Below, one piece after another: positions 11,577-58,863 of a stretch of 64,000 nucleotides of DNA. The first letter of the stretch is position 1, and every line of letters begins with the position of its first letter. The DNA is from an uncultured bacterium. GTDB lineage: Bacteria; Hydrothermota; UBA3072; B12-G15. The notes beneath the pieces are model-generated. The model had not been told where the DNA came from, searched no databases, and was given only the letters and a program-made list of their open reading frames with translations. Position numbers and translations under genes: made by a program. Location of the stretch: assembly GCA_965612735.1 (NCBI GenBank), contig CBFDSV010000005.1:866-64865 (forward strand). Direction: 5' to 3'.

Positions 11577-12920
11577 ATGAAGGAATATGATGTTGTTATA
11601 GTGGGTGGTGGTCCAGCAGGGCTCACCACTGGAATTTCGGCAAGGAACACCTATCCTGACAAAAAAATAGCACTCATCAGGAAGGAAGAGATTGCCATGA
11701 TTCCATGCGGAATTCCCTACACAATCCACACACTTGAAAAGGTTGAAGATGACATACTTCCAGATGCACCAATCAACAAAAACAACATTGACCTGATTAT
11801 TGACAGGGTTGTGAATGCCAGTGACCACAGTCTTGAACTCGCTTCCGGTGAAAAGATAACATTCAGAAAACTTGTTATTGCCACAGGTTCAGTCCCCTTT
11901 ACCCCTCCCATACCAGGCATTGATAAGAAGAATGTATGGTTTGTTAAGAAGGAGAAAAACTACCTTGAGAAGATGAAAAAGGGGCTGAATGAGGCAGGAA
12001 CTGTTATCATTATAGGTGGTGGATTTATCGGGATTGAGGTGGCAGATGAACTTCTCAAAGCAGGAAAAAAGGTTTATGTGATTGAAAAACTTCCATCCCT
12101 CCTTCCACTTGCAATGGACAGAGAATTCGGTGATATGGCAAAAGAGGTTCTCACTTCTCTGGGTGCAGAAGTCCTTACAGGGGTTACTGTTAAGGAGATA
12201 ACAGGTGCAGAATCTGTTGATGGTGTCCTGCTTGACAATGATAAAAAAATCGCCGGAGATGCAATTGTTATTGCTGCTGGCTACAGACCAAACCTTGAAC
12301 TTGCAAAAGATTTAGAACTGAAGATAGAAGAAAGATATGGAATAGTTGTGGATGAATATCTGAGAACAAGCAGGGAGGATATTTTTGCAGTTGGTGATTG
12401 TGCAGTAAAGAGATGCTGCTTCACAGGAGAATATTCTAAAATCATGCTTGCTTCAACTGCAATGGCTCAGGGAAGGCTTGCAGGCTCAAATCTCTTTGAA
12501 ATAAAGGTAATAAAGGGATTCCTTGGAACACTTGGAACATTCTCCACAAAGATTGGAAACACTGCATTTGGTGTTTCAGGCCTTACAGAGGAACAGGTAA
12601 AGAGAATTGGCATTGATTATGTGGTGGGAATCAACGAAACCGTTGACAGACATCCCGGGAAACTACCGGGTGCCTCAAAGATTTACACAAAACTCATATA
12701 CTCAAAATACTCTCACATCCTGCTGGGAGCACAGGTAAAGGGTGGAGACTCTGTTGGTGAACTTGTGAACATGTATTCAGTCATAATCCAGAACAGGATG
12801 ACGGATATGGAAATTGATACACTCCAGATAGGAACACATCCCCTCCTCACATCCTCACCAATAGCATACCCGGTTATAAATGCAACTGTAAATGCCATCC
12901 TGAAATGGTATAAAGGGTAA
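11577..12920 (+). CDS. FAD-dependent pyridine nucleotide-disulfide oxidoreductase of the NADH oxidase / CoA-disulfide reductase (possibly NSR-like) family.
   Basis: N-terminal VVIVGGGPAGLT dinucleotide fold. Single redox Cys in AMIPCGIPY (the CoADR/Nox SxxxCGxPY active-site context). A second GGGFIGIE NAD fold. 447 aa. Confidence 0.75.
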   Translation: MKEYDVVIVGGGPAGLTTGISARNTYPDKKIALIRKEEIAMIPCGIPYTIHTLEKVEDDILPDAPINKNNIDLIIDRVVNASDHSLELASGEKITFRKLVIATGSVPFTPPIPGIDKKNVWFVKKEKNYLEKMKKGLNEAGTVIIIGGGFIGIEVADELLKAGKKVYVIEKLPSLLPLAMDREFGDMAKEVLTSLGAEVLTGVTVKEITGAESVDGVLLDNDKKIAGDAIVIAAGYRPNLELAKDLELKIEERYGIVVDEYLRTSREDIFAVGDCAVKRCCFTGEYSKIMLASTAMAQGRLAGSNLFEIKVIKGFLGTLGTFSTKIGNTAFGVSGLTEEQVKRIGIDYVVGINETVDRHPGKLPGASKIYTKLIYSKYSHILLGAQVKGGDSVGELVNMYSVIIQNRMTDMEIDTLQIGTHPLLTSSPIAYPVINATVNAILKWYKG

Positions 12921-12922
12921 AT

Positions 12923-12950
12923 AAAGGGGGGCTCCGCCCCCCTTATTTCG
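12923..12950 (+). terminator. Rho-independent terminator.
   Basis: GGGGGGC-tcc-GCCCCCC hairpin followed by TTATTT. Confidence 0.7.
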
Positions 12951-13289: not shown

Positions 13290-15098
13290 ATGAGAAGGTT
13301 TTCAGTGATTTTGGTCTTTTGTTCATTCCTTGTTTTTGGTGCTGTGGATTATCCAGAACAGTTGATGGCTGAAAATCATTATGAAGACTCTGGCAGTGTC
13401 AAGGGTGACTCCCTCAATGTGAGATTTGTTGGCAACTGGCCGTTTGGCCTTTCCTATGCAGTAGCATACGATTCTTTAAGAAGCCTTGCATTTTGTGGTT
13501 CTGGTGGAGGTGTATATATCCTGAATGTATCAGACCCTTCATCTCCTGTTAAGGTATCAGAGGGAATCCACACCAGAAGTCTTGTGTATGGTTTATTTTA
13601 TGATGCTTCTTCAGAGAGGGTCTATATTGCGGATGGTGATGCTGGGCTTGAGATATGGGATGTATCCACACCTTCATCACCTGTAAAACTGGGCTTTTAT
13701 GATACACCTGATCAGGCTCATGGTGTTGCAGTTTCAGGCACGTATGTATATGTCGCGGATGGAGGTTCTGGGCTCCGTGTGATAGATATATCCGACCCTT
13801 CAAATCCTATTGAAGTGGGCTATTATGATACACCTGGTTATGCACGGGGTGTTGCAGTTTCAGGCTCTTATGTATATGTTGCGGATGGCAGTTCTGGGCT
13901 CCGTGTGATAGATATATCCACACCATCAAATCCTTCTGAGGTGGGGTATTATGATACACCTGATTATGCTTATTGTGTTGCATTATCAGGTTCTTATGCA
14001 TATGTTGCAGATGATGATTCAGGACTTTGTGTGATAGATATATCAGACCCATTAAATCCTTCTTTGAAAGGCTCTTATGATACACCTGATCAGGCTCATG
14101 GTGTTGCAGTTTCAGGCACGTATGTATATGTCGCGGATGGAGGTTCTGGGTTCCGTGTGATAGATATATCAGACCCTTCAAACCCTGTTGAAGTGGGCTA
14201 TTATAATACACCTGATGATGCTCATGGTGTTGCAGTTTCAGACTCTTATGCATATGTTGTAGATGGTTGGGATGGTCTTCGTGTTATAGATATATCCGAC
14301 CCATCAAATCCTACAGGAGTGGGCTATTATGTTCCACCTGGTTATGCTTGGGGTGTTGCAGTTTCAGGCTCTTATGTATATGTCGCGGATGGAGGCTCTG
14401 GGCTCCGTGTGATAGATATATCCGACCCTTCAAACCCTGTTGAAGTAGGCTATTATGATACACCTGGTTATGCTTATGATGTTGCATTATCAGGTTCTTA
14501 TGCATATGTTGCAGATGATAATGCTGGGCTCAGTGTTATAGATATATCCGACCCATCAAATCCTAGACGAGTGGGCTATTATTTTACACCTGGTTATGCT
14601 AGGGGTGTTGCAGTTTCGGACTCTTATGCATATGTCGCGGATGGCAGTTCTGGGCTCCGTGTGATAGATATATCCGACCCTTCAAATCCTTTTGAAGTGG
14701 GCTATTATGATACACCTTATTCGGGTAATAATGTTGCAGTTTCAGGCGCTTATGCATATGTTGCAGATGGCCGTAGCGGGCTCCAGATTTATGAAAATCT
14801 CCTTTTTGGTATTGGTGATTCTCAGGATGAGATTTCTCTTCCTGTTTTCCGACTCTCACAGAATCCAGTTGTTTGTGATTATATAGAAATTGAATTGAGT
14901 GTTGAACAAAAGGATGGGTATGATTTAAACCTCTATAATCTTCTCGGGCAGAAGGTAAAAACCTTTACCATAAGTGGCCTATCTGCTGGCAAGCATAAGA
15001 TAAGACTGGAAACAAAAGGTCTAACAGGTGGTGTGTATTTTCTGAGAATGGGAGATAAAGAGAGTCAACAGTGTGTTAAGGTTACAATTATGAAATGA
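13290..15098 (+). CDS. Secreted LVIVD-repeat protein (about 11 tandem 40-aa repeats) with a T9SS C-terminal sorting domain.
   Basis: Signal peptide. Repeats of the form [42 protein letters not shown] (LVIVD/PF08309-like). C-terminal [21 protein letters not shown]. Nucleotide repeat units of about 120 bp, several nearly identical. Confidence 0.7.
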   Translation: [602 protein letters not shown]

Positions 15099-21273: not shown

Positions 21274-22204
21274 AACAAGAGACTTTCTAAAAAAATACGA
21301 GAGTTTCCTCATCACATCCCATAAAAATCCCGACGGAGATGCAATTGGTTCTCAGATAGGGCTTGCCCTTGCCCTGAAAAAAATGGGAAAGGACGTGATT
21401 ATAGTAGATACAGACCCTGTTCCAAAGAGGTTCAGATACTTTGACCAGATTGACCTTGTCCAGAATGAAATAGGGGATTTTGACTATCAGGCCGTGATTG
21501 TGCTTGACAGTTCAAGCCCTGACAGGCTTGGTAGCATATCAGAAAAGATAGACTTCACAAAACCTGTTGCAAACATAGACCACCATATAAGCAATAAGTA
21601 CTTTGGGACAGTAAACCTTGTCCAGCCAGAACGCTCATCCACCTGTGAAATCGTCTATCTTCTATTAAAGGATTTTGTGGAACTTGATAAAGAGATTGCA
21701 ACATACCTCTATCTTGGACTTTTGACTGATACTGGTTCATTCAGATATGCCAATACCCGGGCAGAATCATTGAGGCATGCCTCTGAACTTTTAAGTTACG
21801 GGGTTGATGCAAGTTCTGTTGCTGAAAGGATATGGTTCAGGGATACGCCAGGAAGACTGAAACTTCTCGGGTCTGTGCTTGAAACCATTGAGATATTTGA
21901 TGGTTTCAGCCTGATGTATGTAACAAGGGAGATGATGGAAAGGTACAACACAACAGAGGAAGACACTGAGGAGTTTGCCTCATATGGGCTCACCATAGAC
22001 GGTGTCAGGGCAACTGCATTTGTCAAAGAGAGGGATGGAGAGATAAAGGTATCACTCAGGTCAAAGAAGGGAACAGATGTTGACAGAATTGCTGCAATCT
22101 ATGGTGGTGGTGGTCATAAGAGTGCTGCTGGATTCACTGTTAAGGGGAAAAACTTCTTCTCATTCATTGAGGAATTGAAAAGGGTCATGGAGGAGAATAT
22201 ATGA
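21266..22204 (+). CDS. nrnA: DHH-family phosphoesterase, NrnA-like bifunctional oligoribonuclease / pAp phosphatase.
   Basis: DHH N-domain motifs (HKNPDGDA, DHH) and a DHHA1 C-domain GGGGHKSAAG. Confidence 0.75.
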   Translation: MNKTRDFLKKYESFLITSHKNPDGDAIGSQIGLALALKKMGKDVIIVDTDPVPKRFRYFDQIDLVQNEIGDFDYQAVIVLDSSSPDRLGSISEKIDFTKPVANIDHHISNKYFGTVNLVQPERSSTCEIVYLLLKDFVELDKEIATYLYLGLLTDTGSFRYANTRAESLRHASELLSYGVDASSVAERIWFRDTPGRLKLLGSVLETIEIFDGFSLMYVTREMMERYNTTEEDTEEFASYGLTIDGVRATAFVKERDGEIKVSLRSKKGTDVDRIAAIYGGGGHKSAAGFTVKGKNFFSFIEELKRVMEENI

Positions 22205-23556
22205 GAATTGGAATAATAGGTGGAGGCCCTGCAGGGTACTCATCTGCACTCCTTGCAGGAATTCTGGGGAATCAGGTTGTCCTGTTTGAAGAAGATACAG
22301 TGGGTGGTGTATGCCTGAACAGGGGATGTATCCCTGTAAAGGCACTTATAAAGGTGGCACACGGTTTGAATACAGTAAAAAAGATTGAAACCTCTGGTAT
22401 AAAGGCTGAGGTAACAGGCATAGACTGGGAGAAGGTAAAGAAGACATCCCAGCTTGCTTCACGAAGGCTTGTTGCAGGTGTTCAGAACCTTTTAAAGAAA
22501 AGGAAGGTTGAAGTTATAAATGCCCATGCTGAACTGAAGGATAGTGGAGTTGTCGTGGCAAATGGAAAGGAATACACCTTTGATAAAGTCCTTGTCTCAA
22601 CTGGTTCAAGACCAAGAATACCTCCCTTCAGGGTGGCAAAGAACGTCTGGACAAGTGATGACGCACTCAATGCAAAAGAGATACCTGAATCAATCGGGAT
22701 TATTGGCGGTGGTGTGATTGGTATTGAATTTGCTTATATATTCAGGTCATTTGGCTCTCAGGTTACAATCTATGAGATAATGGACGAGATTCTTCCGGGA
22801 GAAGATAAAGAGATGGCCTCTTCTTTGAGGAAAGAGATGGAGAAGATAGGTGTGAAATTCAAGTTGGGTGTAATGGTTAATGAAATCACAGAAAGAAAAG
22901 GGACATTCACAATAAAATACACAGATGGTGGTAAGGAGTCAGCGGACAAATACAGCAGGGTGCTTGTGGCAATAGGAAGAGAGGTTGTGGCAGATGGTCT
23001 GTCCGATTTAATAGAAATGGAAAATGGATTTATAAAGGTGAATAGAATGATGGAGACCACTATGAAAAACGTCTACGCAGCAGGTGACTGCACGGGTGGT
23101 CAACTCCTTGCACACACAGCCTATCATGAGGGAGAGATTGCTGTATTCAACATGAATGGCAGGAATGAGAAGGTTAATGAAACCTATGTACCCAGGGTTA
23201 TTTATACAAAACCTGAGTTTGCAGCATGTGGAGAAACAGAGGAAAGGCTTAAAGAAAAGGGTGTTGATTATCAGAAGGAGTTCTTCCCATTCACAGGTAA
23301 TGGTAGAGCCATTGCTGAGTCTGAGACCAGGGGTGGTATAAAGATGCTTTTTGACACAAATGGGAAGATACTTGGTGGAGCAATCCTTGGTGGGTATGCT
23401 TCTGAAATGATACATATCATCTGTGTCTCAATGAAAAACGGGGTAACGGCAAGGGAACTCTTCCATACAATATTTGCCCATCCCACCTACTCCGAGACAA
23501 TAAAAGAGGCAGCAGCCCAATTCCTCCACCTCCCCCTCCATGGGGACGGAGGATGA
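22201..23556 (+). CDS. Dihydrolipoyl dehydrogenase-family (class I) pyridine nucleotide-disulfide oxidoreductase.
   Basis: IGGGPAGYSSA FAD fold. Redox disulfide GGVCLNRGCIPVK. C-terminal HAHPTYSE His-Glu dyad. The last 5 codons and the stop lie inside a REP element. Confidence 0.75.
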   Translation: MRIGIIGGGPAGYSSALLAGILGNQVVLFEEDTVGGVCLNRGCIPVKALIKVAHGLNTVKKIETSGIKAEVTGIDWEKVKKTSQLASRRLVAGVQNLLKKRKVEVINAHAELKDSGVVVANGKEYTFDKVLVSTGSRPRIPPFRVAKNVWTSDDALNAKEIPESIGIIGGGVIGIEFAYIFRSFGSQVTIYEIMDEILPGEDKEMASSLRKEMEKIGVKFKLGVMVNEITERKGTFTIKYTDGGKESADKYSRVLVAIGREVVADGLSDLIEMENGFIKVNRMMETTMKNVYAAGDCTGGQLLAHTAYHEGEIAVFNMNGRNEKVNETYVPRVIYTKPEFAACGETEERLKEKGVDYQKEFFPFTGNGRAIAESETRGGIKMLFDTNGKILGGAILGGYASEMIHIICVSMKNGVTARELFHTIFAHPTYSETIKEAAAQFLHLPLHGDGG

Positions 23557-23572
23557 CAATTTGACATTTTTT
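23542..23572 (+). repeat. REP-like element, copy 1 (+ orientation): GGGGACGGAGGATGACAATTTGACATTTTTT.
   Basis: Shares the GGGGACGGAGG-TTGAC-n3-TTTGACA core with copies at 43489, 44462, 53297 and 58832. Preceded by C-rich sequence that can pair with the G-rich half (imperfect hairpin). Confidence 0.7.
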
Positions 23573-23581
23573 CATTCAGGC

Positions 23582-25210
23582 ATGGGGGTATCACTCTTTT
23601 TTCTGATGATCAGCGCTAAATTAAGTGCACAGGAGCAAGGGCGGAAAAGCTCTATCTGTGTAATAACAGATGTTGTGAAAGGAAGCATTGCTGACAGGCT
23701 GGGCCTTAAAACGGGGGATATAATTTTGAGCATAAATGATAAAGAGATACACAGTGATGCTTCCTTTATTAAGGGAATGAAATCTGCTAAGGGTTCAGTG
23801 ATTAAGATTAAAATTTTGAGAAAGGGTAAAGAGATAGTTTTTAAAACTCCTTTTTACGCAGATAAATTGGGCATTTACTTTACTTTTTGTGAAAGAGACA
23901 GACTCCTTTCTCCTGAGGAAATGAAAGAAGACCTTGATACGCTTTTTTCAGCAATTGTAGAGATACATCCCAATCCATATGCCAGTATTTCAAAAGAGGA
24001 ATTTGATAGTTTAAAAAGTAATGTATATAAGTCAATAAATAAATCTATGTCTATCTCTGATTTCTGGAAGATTACAGCACCTGTGGTAGCAAGTATAGGA
24101 GATGGGCATACTTATCTCAACATGCCTGATGGGGAGTGGTTCTATCAATTAACTTCTGATAATAGATTTATATTTCCTATTTTACTACATATTATCCAAG
24201 ATAGTGTACGGGTAAAAAAGAACTTCTCCAGTGCCCCCATAAGAAGTGGTGACTATATAATTTCTATAAACGATGTTCCAATAAGAAAAATTATCAATGA
24301 GTGTATTCCATACATAAGTGGTGAACTTTACCATTTTAAAATAAGCCTTTTAGAAAGAAATTTTCCCCAGTTGCTTTTTTTTATATATGGGTTCAAAAGT
24401 TCCTTTAAGGTAAAAATCAAAAACGTAGATGGAGAAATAAGAGAGTACAACCTGGAGGGTATTGATAAAAAAGAATATGACAAAAAAATCTCGGATGCCT
24501 GCGATACCAATTTCTATTTTGAAGAAATTCCTGAATTAAAAACTGGTATTATCAGATTTAACTTCTTTACAAGGAGAGAGGAGTTTTCTAAATTTTTGAA
24601 AAAGACATTCACAGAAATCAAAAGGGAAAACTATAAATATTTGATAATTGATTTACGTAAAAATGGGGGTGGGAGTTCAGAAATTGCTGAAGATTTGTTA
24701 GATTATTTAACAGCCAAACCTTATCGTTTTTTCGGAGGAGGAAAGGTAAAGATATCAAAATATACCTTAAAATTTGTAAAGGAGCATCTATCCATTAAAA
24801 AACCAGTTGTGGATACTTTTTACACTTTTCAATCAGATTTAAAAATGCCACCTCCAAATCCACTAAGGTTCACTGGTAAGTTATTTGTGCTTGTATCAAA
24901 TTATACATTTTCCACCGCGTCTGGTTTTGCTGCTGTAATAAAAGATTTTCAAATAGGTACCTTGATAGGAGAGGAAACAGGCGGACTTCCAACCTGTTTC
25001 GGTGATAGTTGGTCTGTAATTTTACCGAATTCGCACCTTTCCCTTTATGTATCCTGGAAATACTTTATCCGTCCCAATGGAGATTCACGGTATATTCGCA
25101 AAGGGGTTATTCCTGACATTATTGTTAAAACAACAGAAAAAGATTTGGAGGAAGGAGTAGACCCTGTGATGGAAAAGACAAAAGAAATCATCTTGGAGAG
25201 CCTCAGGTAA
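23582..25210 (+). CDS. PDZ-domain S41 family peptidase (C-terminal processing protease-like), secreted.
   Basis: Signal peptide MGVSLFFLMISAKLSAQ at the in-frame Met 23582 (ORF track starts at 23540 inside the REP). PDZ-like GSIADRLGLKTGDIILSIN. S41 signature LIIDLRKNGGGS. The gene is markedly more AT-rich than its neighbours. Confidence 0.7.
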   Translation: MGVSLFFLMISAKLSAQEQGRKSSICVITDVVKGSIADRLGLKTGDIILSINDKEIHSDASFIKGMKSAKGSVIKIKILRKGKEIVFKTPFYADKLGIYFTFCERDRLLSPEEMKEDLDTLFSAIVEIHPNPYASISKEEFDSLKSNVYKSINKSMSISDFWKITAPVVASIGDGHTYLNMPDGEWFYQLTSDNRFIFPILLHIIQDSVRVKKNFSSAPIRSGDYIISINDVPIRKIINECIPYISGELYHFKISLLERNFPQLLFFIYGFKSSFKVKIKNVDGEIREYNLEGIDKKEYDKKISDACDTNFYFEEIPELKTGIIRFNFFTRREEFSKFLKKTFTEIKRENYKYLIIDLRKNGGGSSEIAEDLLDYLTAKPYRFFGGGKVKISKYTLKFVKEHLSIKKPVVDTFYTFQSDLKMPPPNPLRFTGKLFVLVSNYTFSTASGFAAVIKDFQIGTLIGEETGGLPTCFGDSWSVILPNSHLSLYVSWKYFIRPNGDSRYIRKGVIPDIIVKTTEKDLEEGVDPVMEKTKEIILESLR

Positions 25211-25216
25211 CTGAGC

Positions 25217-25234
25217 TTGACTTTTTGACACTTT
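25217..25234 (+). repeat. Partial REP-like element (TTGACTTTTTGACACTTT tail only).
   Basis: Matches the TTGAC-direct-repeat half of the REP family but lacks the GC-rich hairpin half. Lies between convergent genes. Confidence 0.4.
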
Positions 25235-31712: not shown

Positions 31713-31716
31713 CAAC

Positions 31717-31749
31717 AAGGGGGCCTGAGCCCCCCTTTATTTTTTTATC
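31717..31749. terminator. Bidirectional rho-independent terminator between convergent genes.
   Basis: AAGGGGGC-ctga-GCCCCCTT hairpin flanked by A-run and T-run (TTTATTTTTTTA). Confidence 0.7.
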
Positions 31750-42928: not shown

Positions 42929-43474
42929 TTACTCCTCCTTGAATGGATGGAAGTTCACAAAGTCTGCAAAGTGAACAATCCAGCCCTCGGGAATCCTCTT
43001 GACAAAATCACCCTCCTTTGAGTGTGCAGCAATTATGTGGACAACCTGGTATGGAAGACCATTCTTGTATGCAAGTGCAGCACCTGAAACAGGATGCCTT
43101 ATTCTCTTTCCGAATTCACCAACGTGGATTGTATCCTCTTTTACATACTCAAGGAACTTCCCTACATCATGCAGGATTGCACCAGAAACAAGTATATCCC
43201 TCTCCATGGGTAGAGCATCCCCATATTCCTCTTTTAATGTATCAAAGATGGCAATAGCAGTCCTTGTTACTGCCCTTGTATGTTTGATAAGGGAGATTTT
43301 TGTTCCCTTGATGAGCATGGTGAACGGTATCTCCTCAAGGTCCTCCTCCTTCCAACCCCCAATCTGGATGGCCTCCTCAATGGTCTTAATGGTCTTTTCC
43401 TTCAGTTCACTATCCTTAATCTCCTCAACCTCAGGAAAGATTTTTCTTATATCCATTTCCCCTCCTTCTTTCAC
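42929..43474 (-). CDS. HD-domain phosphohydrolase.
   Basis: H...HD motif (GAILHDVGK) and a downstream His cluster (HIIAAHSKEGD). 181 aa. Confidence 0.6.
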   Translation of the reverse strand: MKEGGEMDIRKIFPEVEEIKDSELKEKTIKTIEEAIQIGGWKEEDLEEIPFTMLIKGTKISLIKHTRAVTRTAIAIFDTLKEEYGDALPMERDILVSGAILHDVGKFLEYVKEDTIHVGEFGKRIRHPVSGAALAYKNGLPYQVVHIIAAHSKEGDFVKRIPEGWIVHFADFVNFHPFKEE

Positions 43475-44457
43475 CCCCTCCCCTTTCTGGGGACGGAGGT
43501 TGACTTTTTGACATTTTTATCTCCTCGTTCCTTCTCCTTTTTAATACGTTCCTTTGCCCTTTTATAAATCTTTCCAAGTGATGAATATCTTAGATTTTTA
43601 AAGATGGGCATCCTGATAATATCACTATACTTCAATCCTGCTTCATCCCTCAACCTCACCAGCAATTCACCACGAAGCCTTTTTCCATTTCTTTTTGAGG
43701 TATCAATCTTTTCAACCTTTACACCAGACTCTTTTTCAAAATCCCTGATAACTTCGGAAGGTTCAACAAATGGATAATCCTTCTTTCTTCTCCGAAGATT
43801 TTCCCCGGTAGATTTTCTCCTGTTAAAACGTCTTTCAATCTCCCCAACAAACTCAGTATTCCCAATCACGTCTCCAAACCGTGTCCTCTTCACATCTGGA
43901 GATTTGTCCCTTGAAATCCAATCCATGAAAAGTGCGTCAAGTTTATCCTTCCCTCCAATGATACTTTCAACAAATTCATGGTCCACAAGGCCAGATGTTT
44001 TTTCAGAAAAGTAATCTGATATACTTGACCATATGTATTCGTATGGATTCTTAACAATTCCTGCACGAACAGGATTCAGTAAAACATATGTGAGTACCAT
44101 AATCATGTAGGGCTCATCCTGAATCAAAGTGGATTTGTACCTATCTTGAAAAACATACCCTTTCCCACCCTCAAGATATCTATAATATTTTCCAAAAGTA
44201 CCATTCAGATACCTCATAAAATCACCAAGCCTTCCTGAGGAATTCTGCAAAACAAGATGATAATGATTATCCATAAGGCAATATGCAAATATTTTTATAC
44301 GGTATTTATTCTTTGCCTCTGCCAACAGGTTGAGGAAATAGTTTTTGAGTTCTGTAGACAGAAAAACAGGTTCTCCCCTTAATCCACGGGAGACAATATG
44401 ATGATATGCACCTTCATAAGTTACACGGGCATGCCTCATAGAGAGGATTATAAACAA
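43471..44457 (-). CDS. REP-associated tyrosine transposase (RAYT; IS200/IS605-like Y1 HUH transposase) with a long basic C-terminal extension. Probable true start is the ATG at 44439.
   Basis: HHIVSRG and the HUH motif (MDNHYHLVL). Catalytic-Tyr region (FQDRYKS). Flanked by inverted REP copies. The C-terminal roughly 150 aa is K/R-rich with a possible DnaA-domain-IV-like HTH. Confidence 0.75.
   Translation of the reverse strand: MFIILSMRHARVTYEGAYHHIVSRGLRGEPVFLSTELKNYFLNLLAEAKNKYRIKIFAYCLMDNHYHLVLQNSSGRLGDFMRYLNGTFGKYYRYLEGGKGYVFQDRYKSTLIQDEPYMIMVLTYVLLNPVRAGIVKNPYEYIWSSISDYFSEKTSGLVDHEFVESIIGGKDKLDALFMDWISRDKSPDVKRTRFGDVIGNTEFVGEIERRFNRRKSTGENLRRRKKDYPFVEPSEVIRDFEKESGVKVEKIDTSKRNGKRLRGELLVRLRDEAGLKYSDIIRMPIFKNLRYSSLGKIYKRAKERIKKEKERGDKNVKKSTSVPRKGRG
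43489..43518 (+). repeat. REP-like element, copy 3 (+): GGGGACGGAGGTTGACTTTTTGACATTTTT. It forms the left inverted repeat flanking the RAYT gene.
   Basis: Same core as copy 1. Preceded by CCTCCCC, which can pair with GGGG(AC)GGAGG. The annotated 3' end of the RAYT ORF reads through it (…PRKGRG*). Confidence 0.7.
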
Positions 44458-44461
44458 ATTT

Positions 44462-44495
44462 GAGAAACTGTCAAATTGTCCACCTCCGTCCCCGG
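44462..44495 (-). repeat. REP-like element, copy 4 (- orientation), 5 nt upstream of the RAYT start. It is the right inverted repeat.
   Basis: Reverse complement reads CCGGGGACGGAGGTGGACAATTTGACAGTTTCTC. Preceded (on that strand) by CCCCCCC ATTT, giving a hairpin. Confidence 0.7.
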
Positions 44496-52434: not shown

Positions 52435-53177
52435 TTATCCTCCTTTTTTAGAAGTTTTAGAAATTCATCAATAGCCTCAATTGATTCACTGAGGTTATTC
52501 CATAATGAGAATTTATTCCTATCAGCACCAAGAACCCTTTCAATGGCATCAAAGTACAGTCTGTAAATATCCTTTATTCTATCAATATAAACAGCACCAT
52601 TCTCTCTGAGTTCCTTCAGCCTTTCCATAATCTCATCACTTGCCTGGATTAGAAGGGCAGAAACAATCCTTGCGGCTCCGTATGGTGAGTACACATGAAA
52701 AATACCTTCATCAACACCCTGTTTAATTATCTCTGCAAGAACAGATGCAAAATGCTCCATTGATTTTTTATTGAGTATGTACTGAAACTGTGCGTTTTTG
52801 GGATCAATCAGGAAGTCAATTATCACATAGATTCCCTCACCAAACCTCCTTATCTTTTCAATGGCAATCTTATTAAAAACCTGATAGAACTTTTCACTGG
52901 CGTTAAGTGCCCTGTCACCCACAATCCCCCAGGCTATATCCATAAGTTTTTCCCTCATATCCTCTGCCAGGGCATCAATAAGTTCGTCTTTTGACCTGAA
53001 ATACCAGTAAAATGTTCCCTTGGCTATTCCCGCTGTATCAACAATATCCTGTACTGTGGTCTGTGTATAGCCCTTTGAATACAGAACCTTCAAACCCGCT
53101 TCAATTATCTCTTTTTTCCTTACCTCAGGCTTCTTAACTATTCTCATAATCACCTCTACTGACCGACCGTCAGTCAA
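52431..53177 (-). CDS. TetR/AcrR family transcriptional regulator. Probable true start is the ATG at 53147.
   Basis: HTH TVQDIVDTAGIAKGTFYWYFRSKDEL. The ORF-track start is a TTG. The ATG 10 codons in has a GAGGTG RBS. Confidence 0.8.
   Translation of the reverse strand: MTDGRSVEVIMRIVKKPEVRKKEIIEAGLKVLYSKGYTQTTVQDIVDTAGIAKGTFYWYFRSKDELIDALAEDMREKLMDIAWGIVGDRALNASEKFYQVFNKIAIEKIRRFGEGIYVIIDFLIDPKNAQFQYILNKKSMEHFASVLAEIIKQGVDEGIFHVYSPYGAARIVSALLIQASDEIMERLKELRENGAVYIDRIKDIYRLYFDAIERVLGADRNKFSLWNNLSESIEAIDEFLKLLKKEDK
53158..53174. promoter_or_regulatory. Candidate TetR operator: inverted repeat ACTGAC-cgacc-GTCAGT, 11 nt upstream of the tetR start codon.
   Basis: Perfect 6-bp arms. Position overlaps the RBS region of the autoregulated repressor gene. 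Confidence 0.35.
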
Positions 53178-53296
53178 TTATAAGGGATTTTTTTATTCTG
53201 TCAATATAGGGGACTAAACATCCAATCTATCCATTTTATTGGGGATCAGCCATAAACCTTCACCAGTTATCCAACTGAAAATAAAAATGTTAAAGA

Positions 53297-53326
53297 AAAT
53301 GTCAAATTGTCAACCTCCGTCCCTGG
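53297..53326 (-). repeat. REP-like element, copy 5 (-). The reverse complement is CCAGGGACGGAGGTTGACAATTTGACATTTT.
   Basis: Supplies the last 4 codons and stop (RDGG*) of the 53310..53729 ORF. Points toward the tetR-lol operon. Confidence 0.7.
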
Positions 53327-53729
53327 AGAGGTGTTCCTGGTATTCGGGGAGATTGACAACCGCAGAATTTAATTCCTGGTCATCAAGGTTTGCATATTTA
53401 TCAATAACATAATCGGCAACAGAAAGAATATCATCAGGAAGTTCAACATTCCTATCCTTAACCAGCCTGAAGAACCCTCTTACAGGATTACCCTCTTCAT
53501 CCTTTATTTCTATCTTTTCAACACCATCAATTGACATCAGGAATGGTGGAAACCCTTCTATATAGAACCCATAAGGGGTTATCACATAATCAAAATCCGT
53601 GCAGGGCTTCCCGTGCCTTCTCCTGCATTCTGTATCAATCAGGAAAAGTAGCCTGCTCAACCTGAAAGGATGCTGGTCAGGCACCTTTTTCAATAAATAT
53701 AAAACAAGCATTTCATTAATCCTTTTCAT
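53310..53729 (-). CDS. Hypothetical protein (139 aa), possibly Panacea/DUF4065 (SocA-antitoxin-like) domain.
   Basis: No confident motif. Weak resemblance to DUF4065 (LSRLLFLID...G.P.T...YV....GFY). Its C-terminal residues are encoded by the REP element. Confidence 0.4.
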   Translation of the reverse strand: MKRINEMLVLYLLKKVPDQHPFRLSRLLFLIDTECRRRHGKPCTDFDYVITPYGFYIEGFPPFLMSIDGVEKIEIKDEEGNPVRGFFRLVKDRNVELPDDILSVADYVIDKYANLDDQELNSAVVNLPEYQEHLSRDGG

Positions 53730-58757: not shown

Positions 58758-58831
58758 GCGCTCTCTCCTTTTCTGTAATTCTATCTTTACACCGAGATAA
58801 TGTCAAGCCCAGCATAAAACAAAGATTTACC

Positions 58832-58863
58832 AAAAGTGTCAAAAAGTCAACCTCCGACCCCGG
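58832..58863 (-). repeat. REP-like element, copy 6 (-). The reverse complement is CCGGGGGTCGGAGGTTGACTTTTTGACACTTTT.
   Basis: Same family. Lies about 75 nt upstream of glmS in the same orientation. Confidence 0.65.

Follow-up and report, generated by a model that had tools for sequence, protein, structure and literature searches.

Several families of bacterial miniature inverted-repeat transposable elements (MITEs), among them Correia/NEMIS, ERIC and RUP, carry outward promoters or RNA hairpins. Closer to the repeat described here are the TIRtrons or TIRYTs, in which genes resembling those of the repetitive extragenic palindromic (REP)-associated tyrosine transposases (RAYTs) are flanked by terminal inverted repeats (TIRs) that share the motif GGGGWSAS and sometimes form dispersed families (Di Nocera et al. 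2013, PMC3733652). The termini of REPs with a GTAG tag often provide the stop codon of flanking open reading frames (ORFs) (PMC3733652). Quentin et al. 2018 (PMC6006769) equate the TIRYTs with TnpA_REP subclass 2.1, a group characterised by a C-terminal helix-turn-helix (HTH), and according to that survey no REP-like sequences adjoin subclass 2.1 genes (PMC6006769). We analysed a 64-kb stretch of contig CBFDSV010000005.1 from an uncultured bacterium (the window), in which a short repeat at positions 23542-23572 overlaps the end of the dihydrolipoyl dehydrogenase gene lpd and further copies flank a RAYT-like gene. Our data indicate that this site is very probably one terminal arm in a family of small non-autonomous elements belonging to a RAYT/TIRYT-type Y1 (HUH) transposase.

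We compared the repeat with the described systems. As in the TIRYTs, a RAYT-like Y1 transposase of about 300 aa has inverted-repeat flanks and no palindromic GTAG REPs, the flanking repeat reaches into the gene's 3' end, and the TIR is dispersed and moderately abundant, single or paired. The repeat begins GGGGACGG and agrees with GGGG[AT][CG]A[CG] at 7 of 8 positions, position 7 being G here and A there. A Bac_DnaA_C-like C-terminal HTH is present in 6 of 41 family members, whereas the C-terminus of the window protein has no Pfam HTH match. Different here are the uncultured WOR-3-type host, the density of six copies in 64 kb and the two TTGAC boxes beside the arm. With the REPIN-RAYT systems (Bertels and Rainey 2011, PMC3116915) our locus shares a single transposase gene bracketed by inverted units, non-autonomous doublets in the form of long hairpins, solo-unit remnants and an intergenic location. 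In contrast to the classical REP, a 20-40 nt imperfect palindrome, the unit here is not a palindrome; the GTAG (GT[AG]G) tag is absent and the conserved end is GGGGACGGAGG, and the two ends of the small elements have no more than an 11-nt arm in common. As with the GTAG REPs (PMC3733652), the end of a dispersed repeat overlaps gene 3' ends and supplies a stop codon and a few residues, but the stop is the TGA in GGAGG(T/A)TGAC and not the TAG of the GTAG tag. The element appears to fit the TIRYT description better than that of a classical REP, with the HTH found at the family level only. It extends the TIRYT / subclass 2.1 branch, on which little work has been done, by an abundant repeat family from a host phylum without cultured members in our dataset.

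The repeat has the core consensus G-GGGACGGAGG-(T/A)(T/G)GAC-WW-TTTGACA-nTTT, and the stretch 23542-23572 reads GGGGACGGAGGATGACAATTTGACATTTTTT. With at most one mismatch to the 25-mer core we found five copies in the window (A to E in Table 1), and the same consensus scan identified a sixth, degenerate copy (F). Shuffled sequence gave about 0.5 core hits even when 7 mismatches were allowed. GGAGGWTGAC, a decamer, is present four times in the window, where 0.34 occurrences would be expected, and a count of at least four was reached by 0 of 100 shuffles. Since both the 25-mer and the decamer counts lie far above those of shuffled sequence, the repeat family is real.

Two collection scans with a degenerate core pattern yielded 17 genome loci and 50 metagenome loci (cited below by L numbers). 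Duplicates were dropped together with four matches (L016, L019, L022 and L027) that we counted as chance matches, their contexts being high-GC or unrelated, and 67 distinct copies make up the set. They come mostly from WOR-3 metagenome-assembled genomes (MAGs), with some from MAGs labelled Aminicenantes, and many lie on contigs of one metagenome. Among the 67 copies the edges of the conserved block are sharp: G stands at position -1 in 84%, the block ends with the TTT after the second box, and the flanks are unrelated except for a weak TTCTG and a variable C run upstream. The two TTGAC half-sites of the core form a direct repeat with an 8-nt period. We found that the copies are intergenic and very often tight against the 3' end of a gene. 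No Rfam family matched in the window at gathering thresholds.

At L035, L036, L037, L038, L040, L055 and L070 the core is followed by another conserved block (GTTTGATTTTTCAACTTTTCTTTCAATCCTTTTTGCCTTTCAATCATTCCTGAACATCCTTCAC..., about 100 nt past the core). This downstream block was considered as a set of transposase 3' ends and rejected, tblastn having shown no transposase there; it seems to be a separate and longer repeat with the core in common.

The transposase gene of the window is flanked by copies B and E, which are mutually inverted and 83% complementary over 42 nt. Its product has an IS200-like Y1 core that matches Pfam Y1_Tnp (E 1e-9), in which the histidines H59 and H61 are conserved or invariant among 41 aligned family members, with Y118 nearly invariant. 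Five further transposase homologues at fetched loci, with 44-97% identity, have the same bracket, the sense core lying just upstream of the start and the inverted core at the 3' end. This confirms the link between the repeat and a RAYT-type gene that a first-pass annotation of the window had drawn. A family search of 1.84 billion representative proteins returned 155 relatives at E <1e-30, typically 291-308 aa long, with an aligned span from query residue 1 to about 299. Y1_Tnp was found in all 41 aligned members, Bac_DnaA_C in six and Sigma70_r4_2 in two, and the C-terminal 70-95 residues from three homologues gave no Pfam match even at E 10. We infer that the transposase mobilises the elements. 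The two TTGAC boxes beside the arm (double-stranded TTGACnnTTTGACA) would be plausible sites for its C-terminal DNA-binding part.

The transposase ORF passes copy B in antisense and ends at a stop (43471-43473) 16 nt beyond the core. Three more distant homologues have their stop right in front of the 3' core, and the window lineage lacks this stop. The antisense strand of the core has no stop in any frame, and because the ORF has lost its own stop it reads through the copy. The tails of close relatives differ (...VPRKGRG-stop, ...VPRRGEGVKRGRGNGYKKNLS-stop and ...VPRKEGIWI-stop). Judging from this variation among close relatives and from the length of the family, the last ~20 residues are an unselected, lineage-specific read-through tail, and the gene as annotated would be over-extended by about 20 codons.

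A diverged core (GGGGACGGGGGTTGAAAATTTGAAA) was also found at L077 (2700-2760), immediately 5' of a different Y1 gene (MRKPRFTYKGAFHHIM...) in the neighbourhood of a SocA-like orthologue. This pair suggests that a core diverges in step with its transposase.

Of the 67 copies, 21 are followed at a distance of 53-201 nt by a complementary right end, CCTCCGTCCC(C). The complete small elements so delimited (53-201 nt) have the left arm GGGGACGGAGG and the right end CCTCCGTCCCC, the complement that pairs with the G-rich arm. They fold as long hairpins (z -3.3, -4.3 and -5.9), and one of them has matching changes in both arms, GGGGGCGGAGG with CCTCCGCCCC. Many copies consist of one left arm alone, as do A, B, D and E in the window. 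There, only copy C is of the doublet or long type, and it ends just short of the promoter-like site of the tetR gene. Together with their flanks, the C-rich flank included, the window copies fold weakly (z -1.2 to -2.1), and the core has no self-complementarity. The label 'REP' given by the first-pass annotation is loose, since the window copies are not palindromic.

Table 1. Repeat copies, genes and promoter-like sites in the window
Feature	Position	Strand	Description
Copy A	23542..23570	+	solo left arm: G-rich 11-mer, two TTGAC boxes, T-run; sequence GGGGACGGAGGATGACAATTTGACATTTT
Copy F	25206..25234	+	degenerate core, 4 mismatches of 23 specified bases; G-arm decayed
Copy B	43489..43517	+	core at 3' end of transposase gene, inverted relative to copy E; read antisense by transposase ORF
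Copy E	44465..44493	-	core at 5' end of transposase gene
Copy C	53209..53324 (core 53296-53324)	-	long form of element, ~115 nt, right end decayed
Copy D	58833..58861	-	solo core, GGGGTCGGAGG variant; spacer of divergent glmS and 195-aa gene
Y1 HUH tyrosine transposase gene, RAYT/TIRYT-like	43471..44439	-	322 aa; HUH = H59-Y60-H61, conserved Y118
Dihydrolipoyl dehydrogenase gene lpd	22201..23556	+	TIGR01350, 447 bits, above cut-off; ends ...LPLHGDGG-stop
SocA/Panacea-domain ORF	53310..53729	-	ends ...LSRDGG-stop on TGA of copy C
Promoter-like site of transposase gene	44447..44474	-	TTGACA-16-TATAAT, 12/12; -35 is second box of copy E (44474-44469)
Promoter-like site of tetR	53177..53204	-	TTGACA-16-TATAAT, 12/12; outside repeat, followed by palindrome and tetR ATG
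Promoter-like site of glmS	58778..58806	-	TTGACA-17-TAGAAT, 11/12; between copy D and glmS

We then considered the gene ends that the repeat closes. The lpd and SocA-like ORFs both stop on the TGA of GGAGG(A/T)TGAC in the same frame, with the GDGG and RDGG endings that had been read from the first inspection. Bases 23545-23556 of copy A encode the D-G-G-stop of lpd, and copy C supplies (R)DGG-stop to the SocA-like ORF. Three ORFs had been placed on this embedded TGA; two of them are, whereas the transposase ORF stops beyond copy B. The TAA stop of an S41 peptidase gene (25208-25210) lies inside the decayed G-arm of copy F. Two of the three sense frames of the core contain a TGA, one in GGN-TGA and one within TTTGACA, so that a gene entering the core is closed after at most 7 codons.

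The non-redundant contexts include 18 co-oriented upstream genes. Of these, five end on the first TGA of the core, nine end 4-22 nt before the arm and four farther away; 14 of the 18 end inside the arm or within 22 nt of it. The five independent genes on the shared TGA are lpd, the SocA-like ORF and genes for PmbA/TldD (L008), DUF3857/DUF3858 (L044) and PLD-like (L066) proteins, and their Pfam domains extend intact to within 4-5 residues of the stop. ORFs ending in the core at L056 and L028 look spurious (low-complexity, Cys/His-rich) and were left out of the count.

To see whether the ...DGG tails derive from the repeat we turned, as the first-pass annotation had asked, to orthologues that lack it. 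REP-free orthologues of lpd (50-54% identity) end ...LPVHSE-stop, ...LPLHS(L/I/V)D-stop or ...PVH-stop. At the DNA level one of them (L082) ends CAT TCG GAA TAA, with no core after the TAA. Similarly, the PmbA/TldD protein ends ...NIFGDGG-stop with the repeat and ...NIAGK-stop (GCA GGG AAG TAA) in a REP-free orthologue with 61% identity. Since the REP-free orthologues of lpd and PmbA end otherwise, the DGG-stop tail in both is repeat-derived: the native lpd sequence runs to ...LPLH and the tail GDGG-stop comes from copy A. For lpd the refuting condition set by the first-pass annotation, the same C-terminal residues in orthologues lacking REPs, thus turned out in favour of its reading. For the SocA-like family the comparison is ambiguous. 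With the repeat the protein ends ...LSRDGG-stop, and REP-free orthologues end ...RRIKN-stop, ...FLEGDG-stop or ...FLYGD-stop; the core is absent from the DNA of the GDG-stop and GD-stop orthologues. A Gly-Asp end may therefore be native in this family, in which case only the last codons need be repeat-derived.

These results are consistent with the following mechanism. An arm copy that landed on the last codons of a gene would delete the native stop and close the frame again within 4 to 7 codons; in lpd, 0-3 native residues and the stop would have been replaced by G-D-G-G-stop. Closure of the gene end would then be a tolerated by-product of insertion and not a function of the element. This involves no new regulatory mechanism, the supply of stops to gene ends having already been described for such repeats. 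For annotation it means that a repeat-derived ...DGG tail is present on several genes in this lineage.

All five overlaps lie in one frame (p ~0.01 if the frames are equally likely), and it is possible to explain this by the insertion itself. The elements might insert at stop codons or in register with them, by target choice or by microhomology to terminal Gly/Asp codons, and the shared ...GDGG-stop frame would in that case have a mechanistic origin and not an accidental one. In agreement with such an account, all five independent overlaps share a single frame, the other two frames having none; the nine genes that end 4-22 nt before the arm also agree with it, as do the REP-free junctions that have GGG (the PmbA end given above) or end GGGGAC-TGA (SocA-like P0128). 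However, the sample is five only; the frame in question gives the shortest tail, and selection could by itself account for such a bias; the one preference in the left flanks is the weak TTCTG; and copies facing gene starts (21) are about as many as those at gene ends (18). We consider in-register insertion unlikely and attribute the single overlap frame to selection for the shortest tail, a junction preference being a possible contributor. Were insertion in register, an arm on the last Gly/Asp-type codons would give each gene ...(G)DGG-stop followed by a Shine-Dalgarno-like GGAGG, which could couple translation of the downstream ORF; we regard this as quite improbable. The example at copy A would be the TTG 8 nt past GGAGG, in frame with the S41 gene.

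We next weighed the proposal of the first-pass annotation that the repeats terminate the upstream transcript and donate an outward -35 to the downstream gene. As a reading of why the repeats are kept, namely as dual-purpose modules, we find it improbable. In its favour, the second box of copy E would be the -35 of a perfect promoter for the transposase gene. The transposase ATG follows the -10 by 7 nt, and the mRNA is probably leaderless or nearly so. The same perfect TTGACA-16-TATAAT is found at L030, and L064 has TTGACA-17-TATAAT. Copy C has an internal TTGACA-16-TATTTT (53305-53278, 10/12), a TATTTT at the right spacing is kept inside several long-form elements, and copies often lie just past stop codons.

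A consensus promoter scan made no call at copies A, B, D and F. When we looked for a -10-like hexamer 16-18 nt after TTGACA, it was present in 8 of 66 copies, compared with 9.4% of random positions and 23% of other TTGACA sites at the same loci. The frequency in the repeat is thus that of random positions and lies below that of other TTGACA sites. It had been noted that in four of five copies the boxes point at the start of the next gene. The geometry holds, copy A facing the S41 gene, E the transposase gene, C tetR and D glmS, but it does not exceed chance: across 39 non-redundant contexts, taken from the window and from related contigs, the box is turned towards a gene start in 17 and towards a gene 3' end in 22. 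The box of copy A ends 15 nt before the likely S41 start (23582), and glmS and tetR have promoter-like sites of their own that are stronger and nearer the gene. This suggests that outward donation of a -35 is not a general property of the repeat.

The terminator role fared no better. For copies A, C, D and F, and indeed for every copy in the window, the upstream gene's strand showed no hairpin followed by a U-tract, and solo arms fold weakly. The sole terminator-like call, that at copy E, runs counter to the direction of any upstream gene, and complete elements end in G-rich or mixed flanks and not in U-runs. Terminator activity of the arm and general -35 donation by the box are therefore not supported by the sequence, and the box is best read as clearly used only by the transposase's own promoter, with no general promoter role elsewhere. 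With the MITEs our elements share a size of 50-200 nt, terminal inverted repeats, a position beside genes and the ability to carry promoter-like boxes. They differ in that no target-site duplication was seen in the 21 full elements, the transposase is Y1 HUH and not DDE, and general promoter donation is not supported.

The tetR start deserves a separate comment. The conserved ATGGCTGATCC... after copy C was considered as this start and rejected, because it is a 5-codon ORF that lies within the long-form element. The gene starts instead with the ATG at 53146-53144, shortly past a GAGGTGA that is itself downstream of the gene's own promoter-like site. Between the perfect TTGACA-16-TATAAT and this ATG (53140-53204, minus strand) lies a near-palindrome, TGACTGACGGTCGGTCAGT, which is probably a TetR operator overlapping the promoter of tetR itself.

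Copies A and F bracket the S41 peptidase gene as a direct repeat (23558-25231). At L032 (4179-4300) the left part of copy A (GGGGACGGAGGATGAC) is joined directly to the right part of copy F (TTTTTGACACTTTGC...) and the 1.7-kb segment is absent; at L010 (350-510) yet another sequence follows the lpd repeat. From these alignments the S41 segment is a presence/absence polymorphism whose junction falls inside the core. Three contigs that carry lpd end about 100 nt after it. For assembly and strain analysis the repeat is accordingly a junction of strain-level rearrangements at which contigs break. There are three candidate starts of the S41 gene in frame. The ATG at 23540, which is the start called on public contigs, lies inside lpd and the repeat, the TTG at 23561 is 8 nt after the GGAGG of the repeat, and the ATG at 23582 is without a Shine-Dalgarno sequence. 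The call at 23540, which overlaps the repeat, is doubtful. If the true start is the TTG at 23561, the repeat would be the source of the S41 ribosome-binding site.

The rearrangement junctions also bear on whether the core is instead a chromosomal operator or regulon motif of a transcription factor, with two direct TTGAC half-sites, and not mobile DNA: the 8-nt period of the TTGAC direct repeat, the presence of the core upstream of several genes and its identical sequence in different MAGs would agree with this, but the core follows gene ends as often as it precedes gene starts, occurs in hairpin elements with inverted repeats and of several lengths, invariably flanks a Y1 transposase gene on both sides and is the junction of strain-specific rearrangements at which contigs break, and we consider this reading extremely improbable.

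Several observations weigh against a mobile element family of a RAYT/TIRYT-kind transposase. The only NCBIfam match of the transposase, REP_Tyr_transpos (REP-associated tyrosine transposase), scores 70.6 bits, under the curated cut-off of 80, and its own C-terminal part has no Pfam match. No target-site duplication was found in the flanks of the 21 full elements, and no clear target motif for insertion was found. Nor was an empty site recovered for any window copy; insertion is thus not directly seen and is instead deduced from orthologues at 50-61% identity. In particular, copy D is present in all three contigs fetched via the neighbouring 195-aa protein, and tblastn gave no REP-free allele of three other REP-terminated genes in the window or any fetched locus. 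The REP-free SocA-like orthologues already end in G-D(-G), and a purely accidental model does not predict the single overlap frame unless selection for the shortest tail is added. Taken with the inverted bracket around the transposase gene, the hairpin forms and the lpd and PmbA orthologues, these points leave the terminal arm of a transposase-dependent element as the reading that we hold to be very probable.

Elsewhere in the window we observed further repeats. At least nine tandem copies of a 126-nt unit (13533-14840), with 64-83% identity to the reference copy, lie within the ORF 13290-15098, whose product is a protein with 42-residue repeats. A 300-nt direct repeat of 99% identity (304-603 and 1561-1860, 1257 nt apart) lies within the large ORF 1-2673 and stems either from a recent duplication inside the ORF or from an artefact of assembly. 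Finally, near-identical G/C hairpins with A/T-rich flanks (AAATAAAGGGGGGCTCCGCCCCCCTTATT and its near-complement) stand at convergent gene ends at 12919-12947 and 31714-31742, and these look like bidirectional intrinsic terminators.

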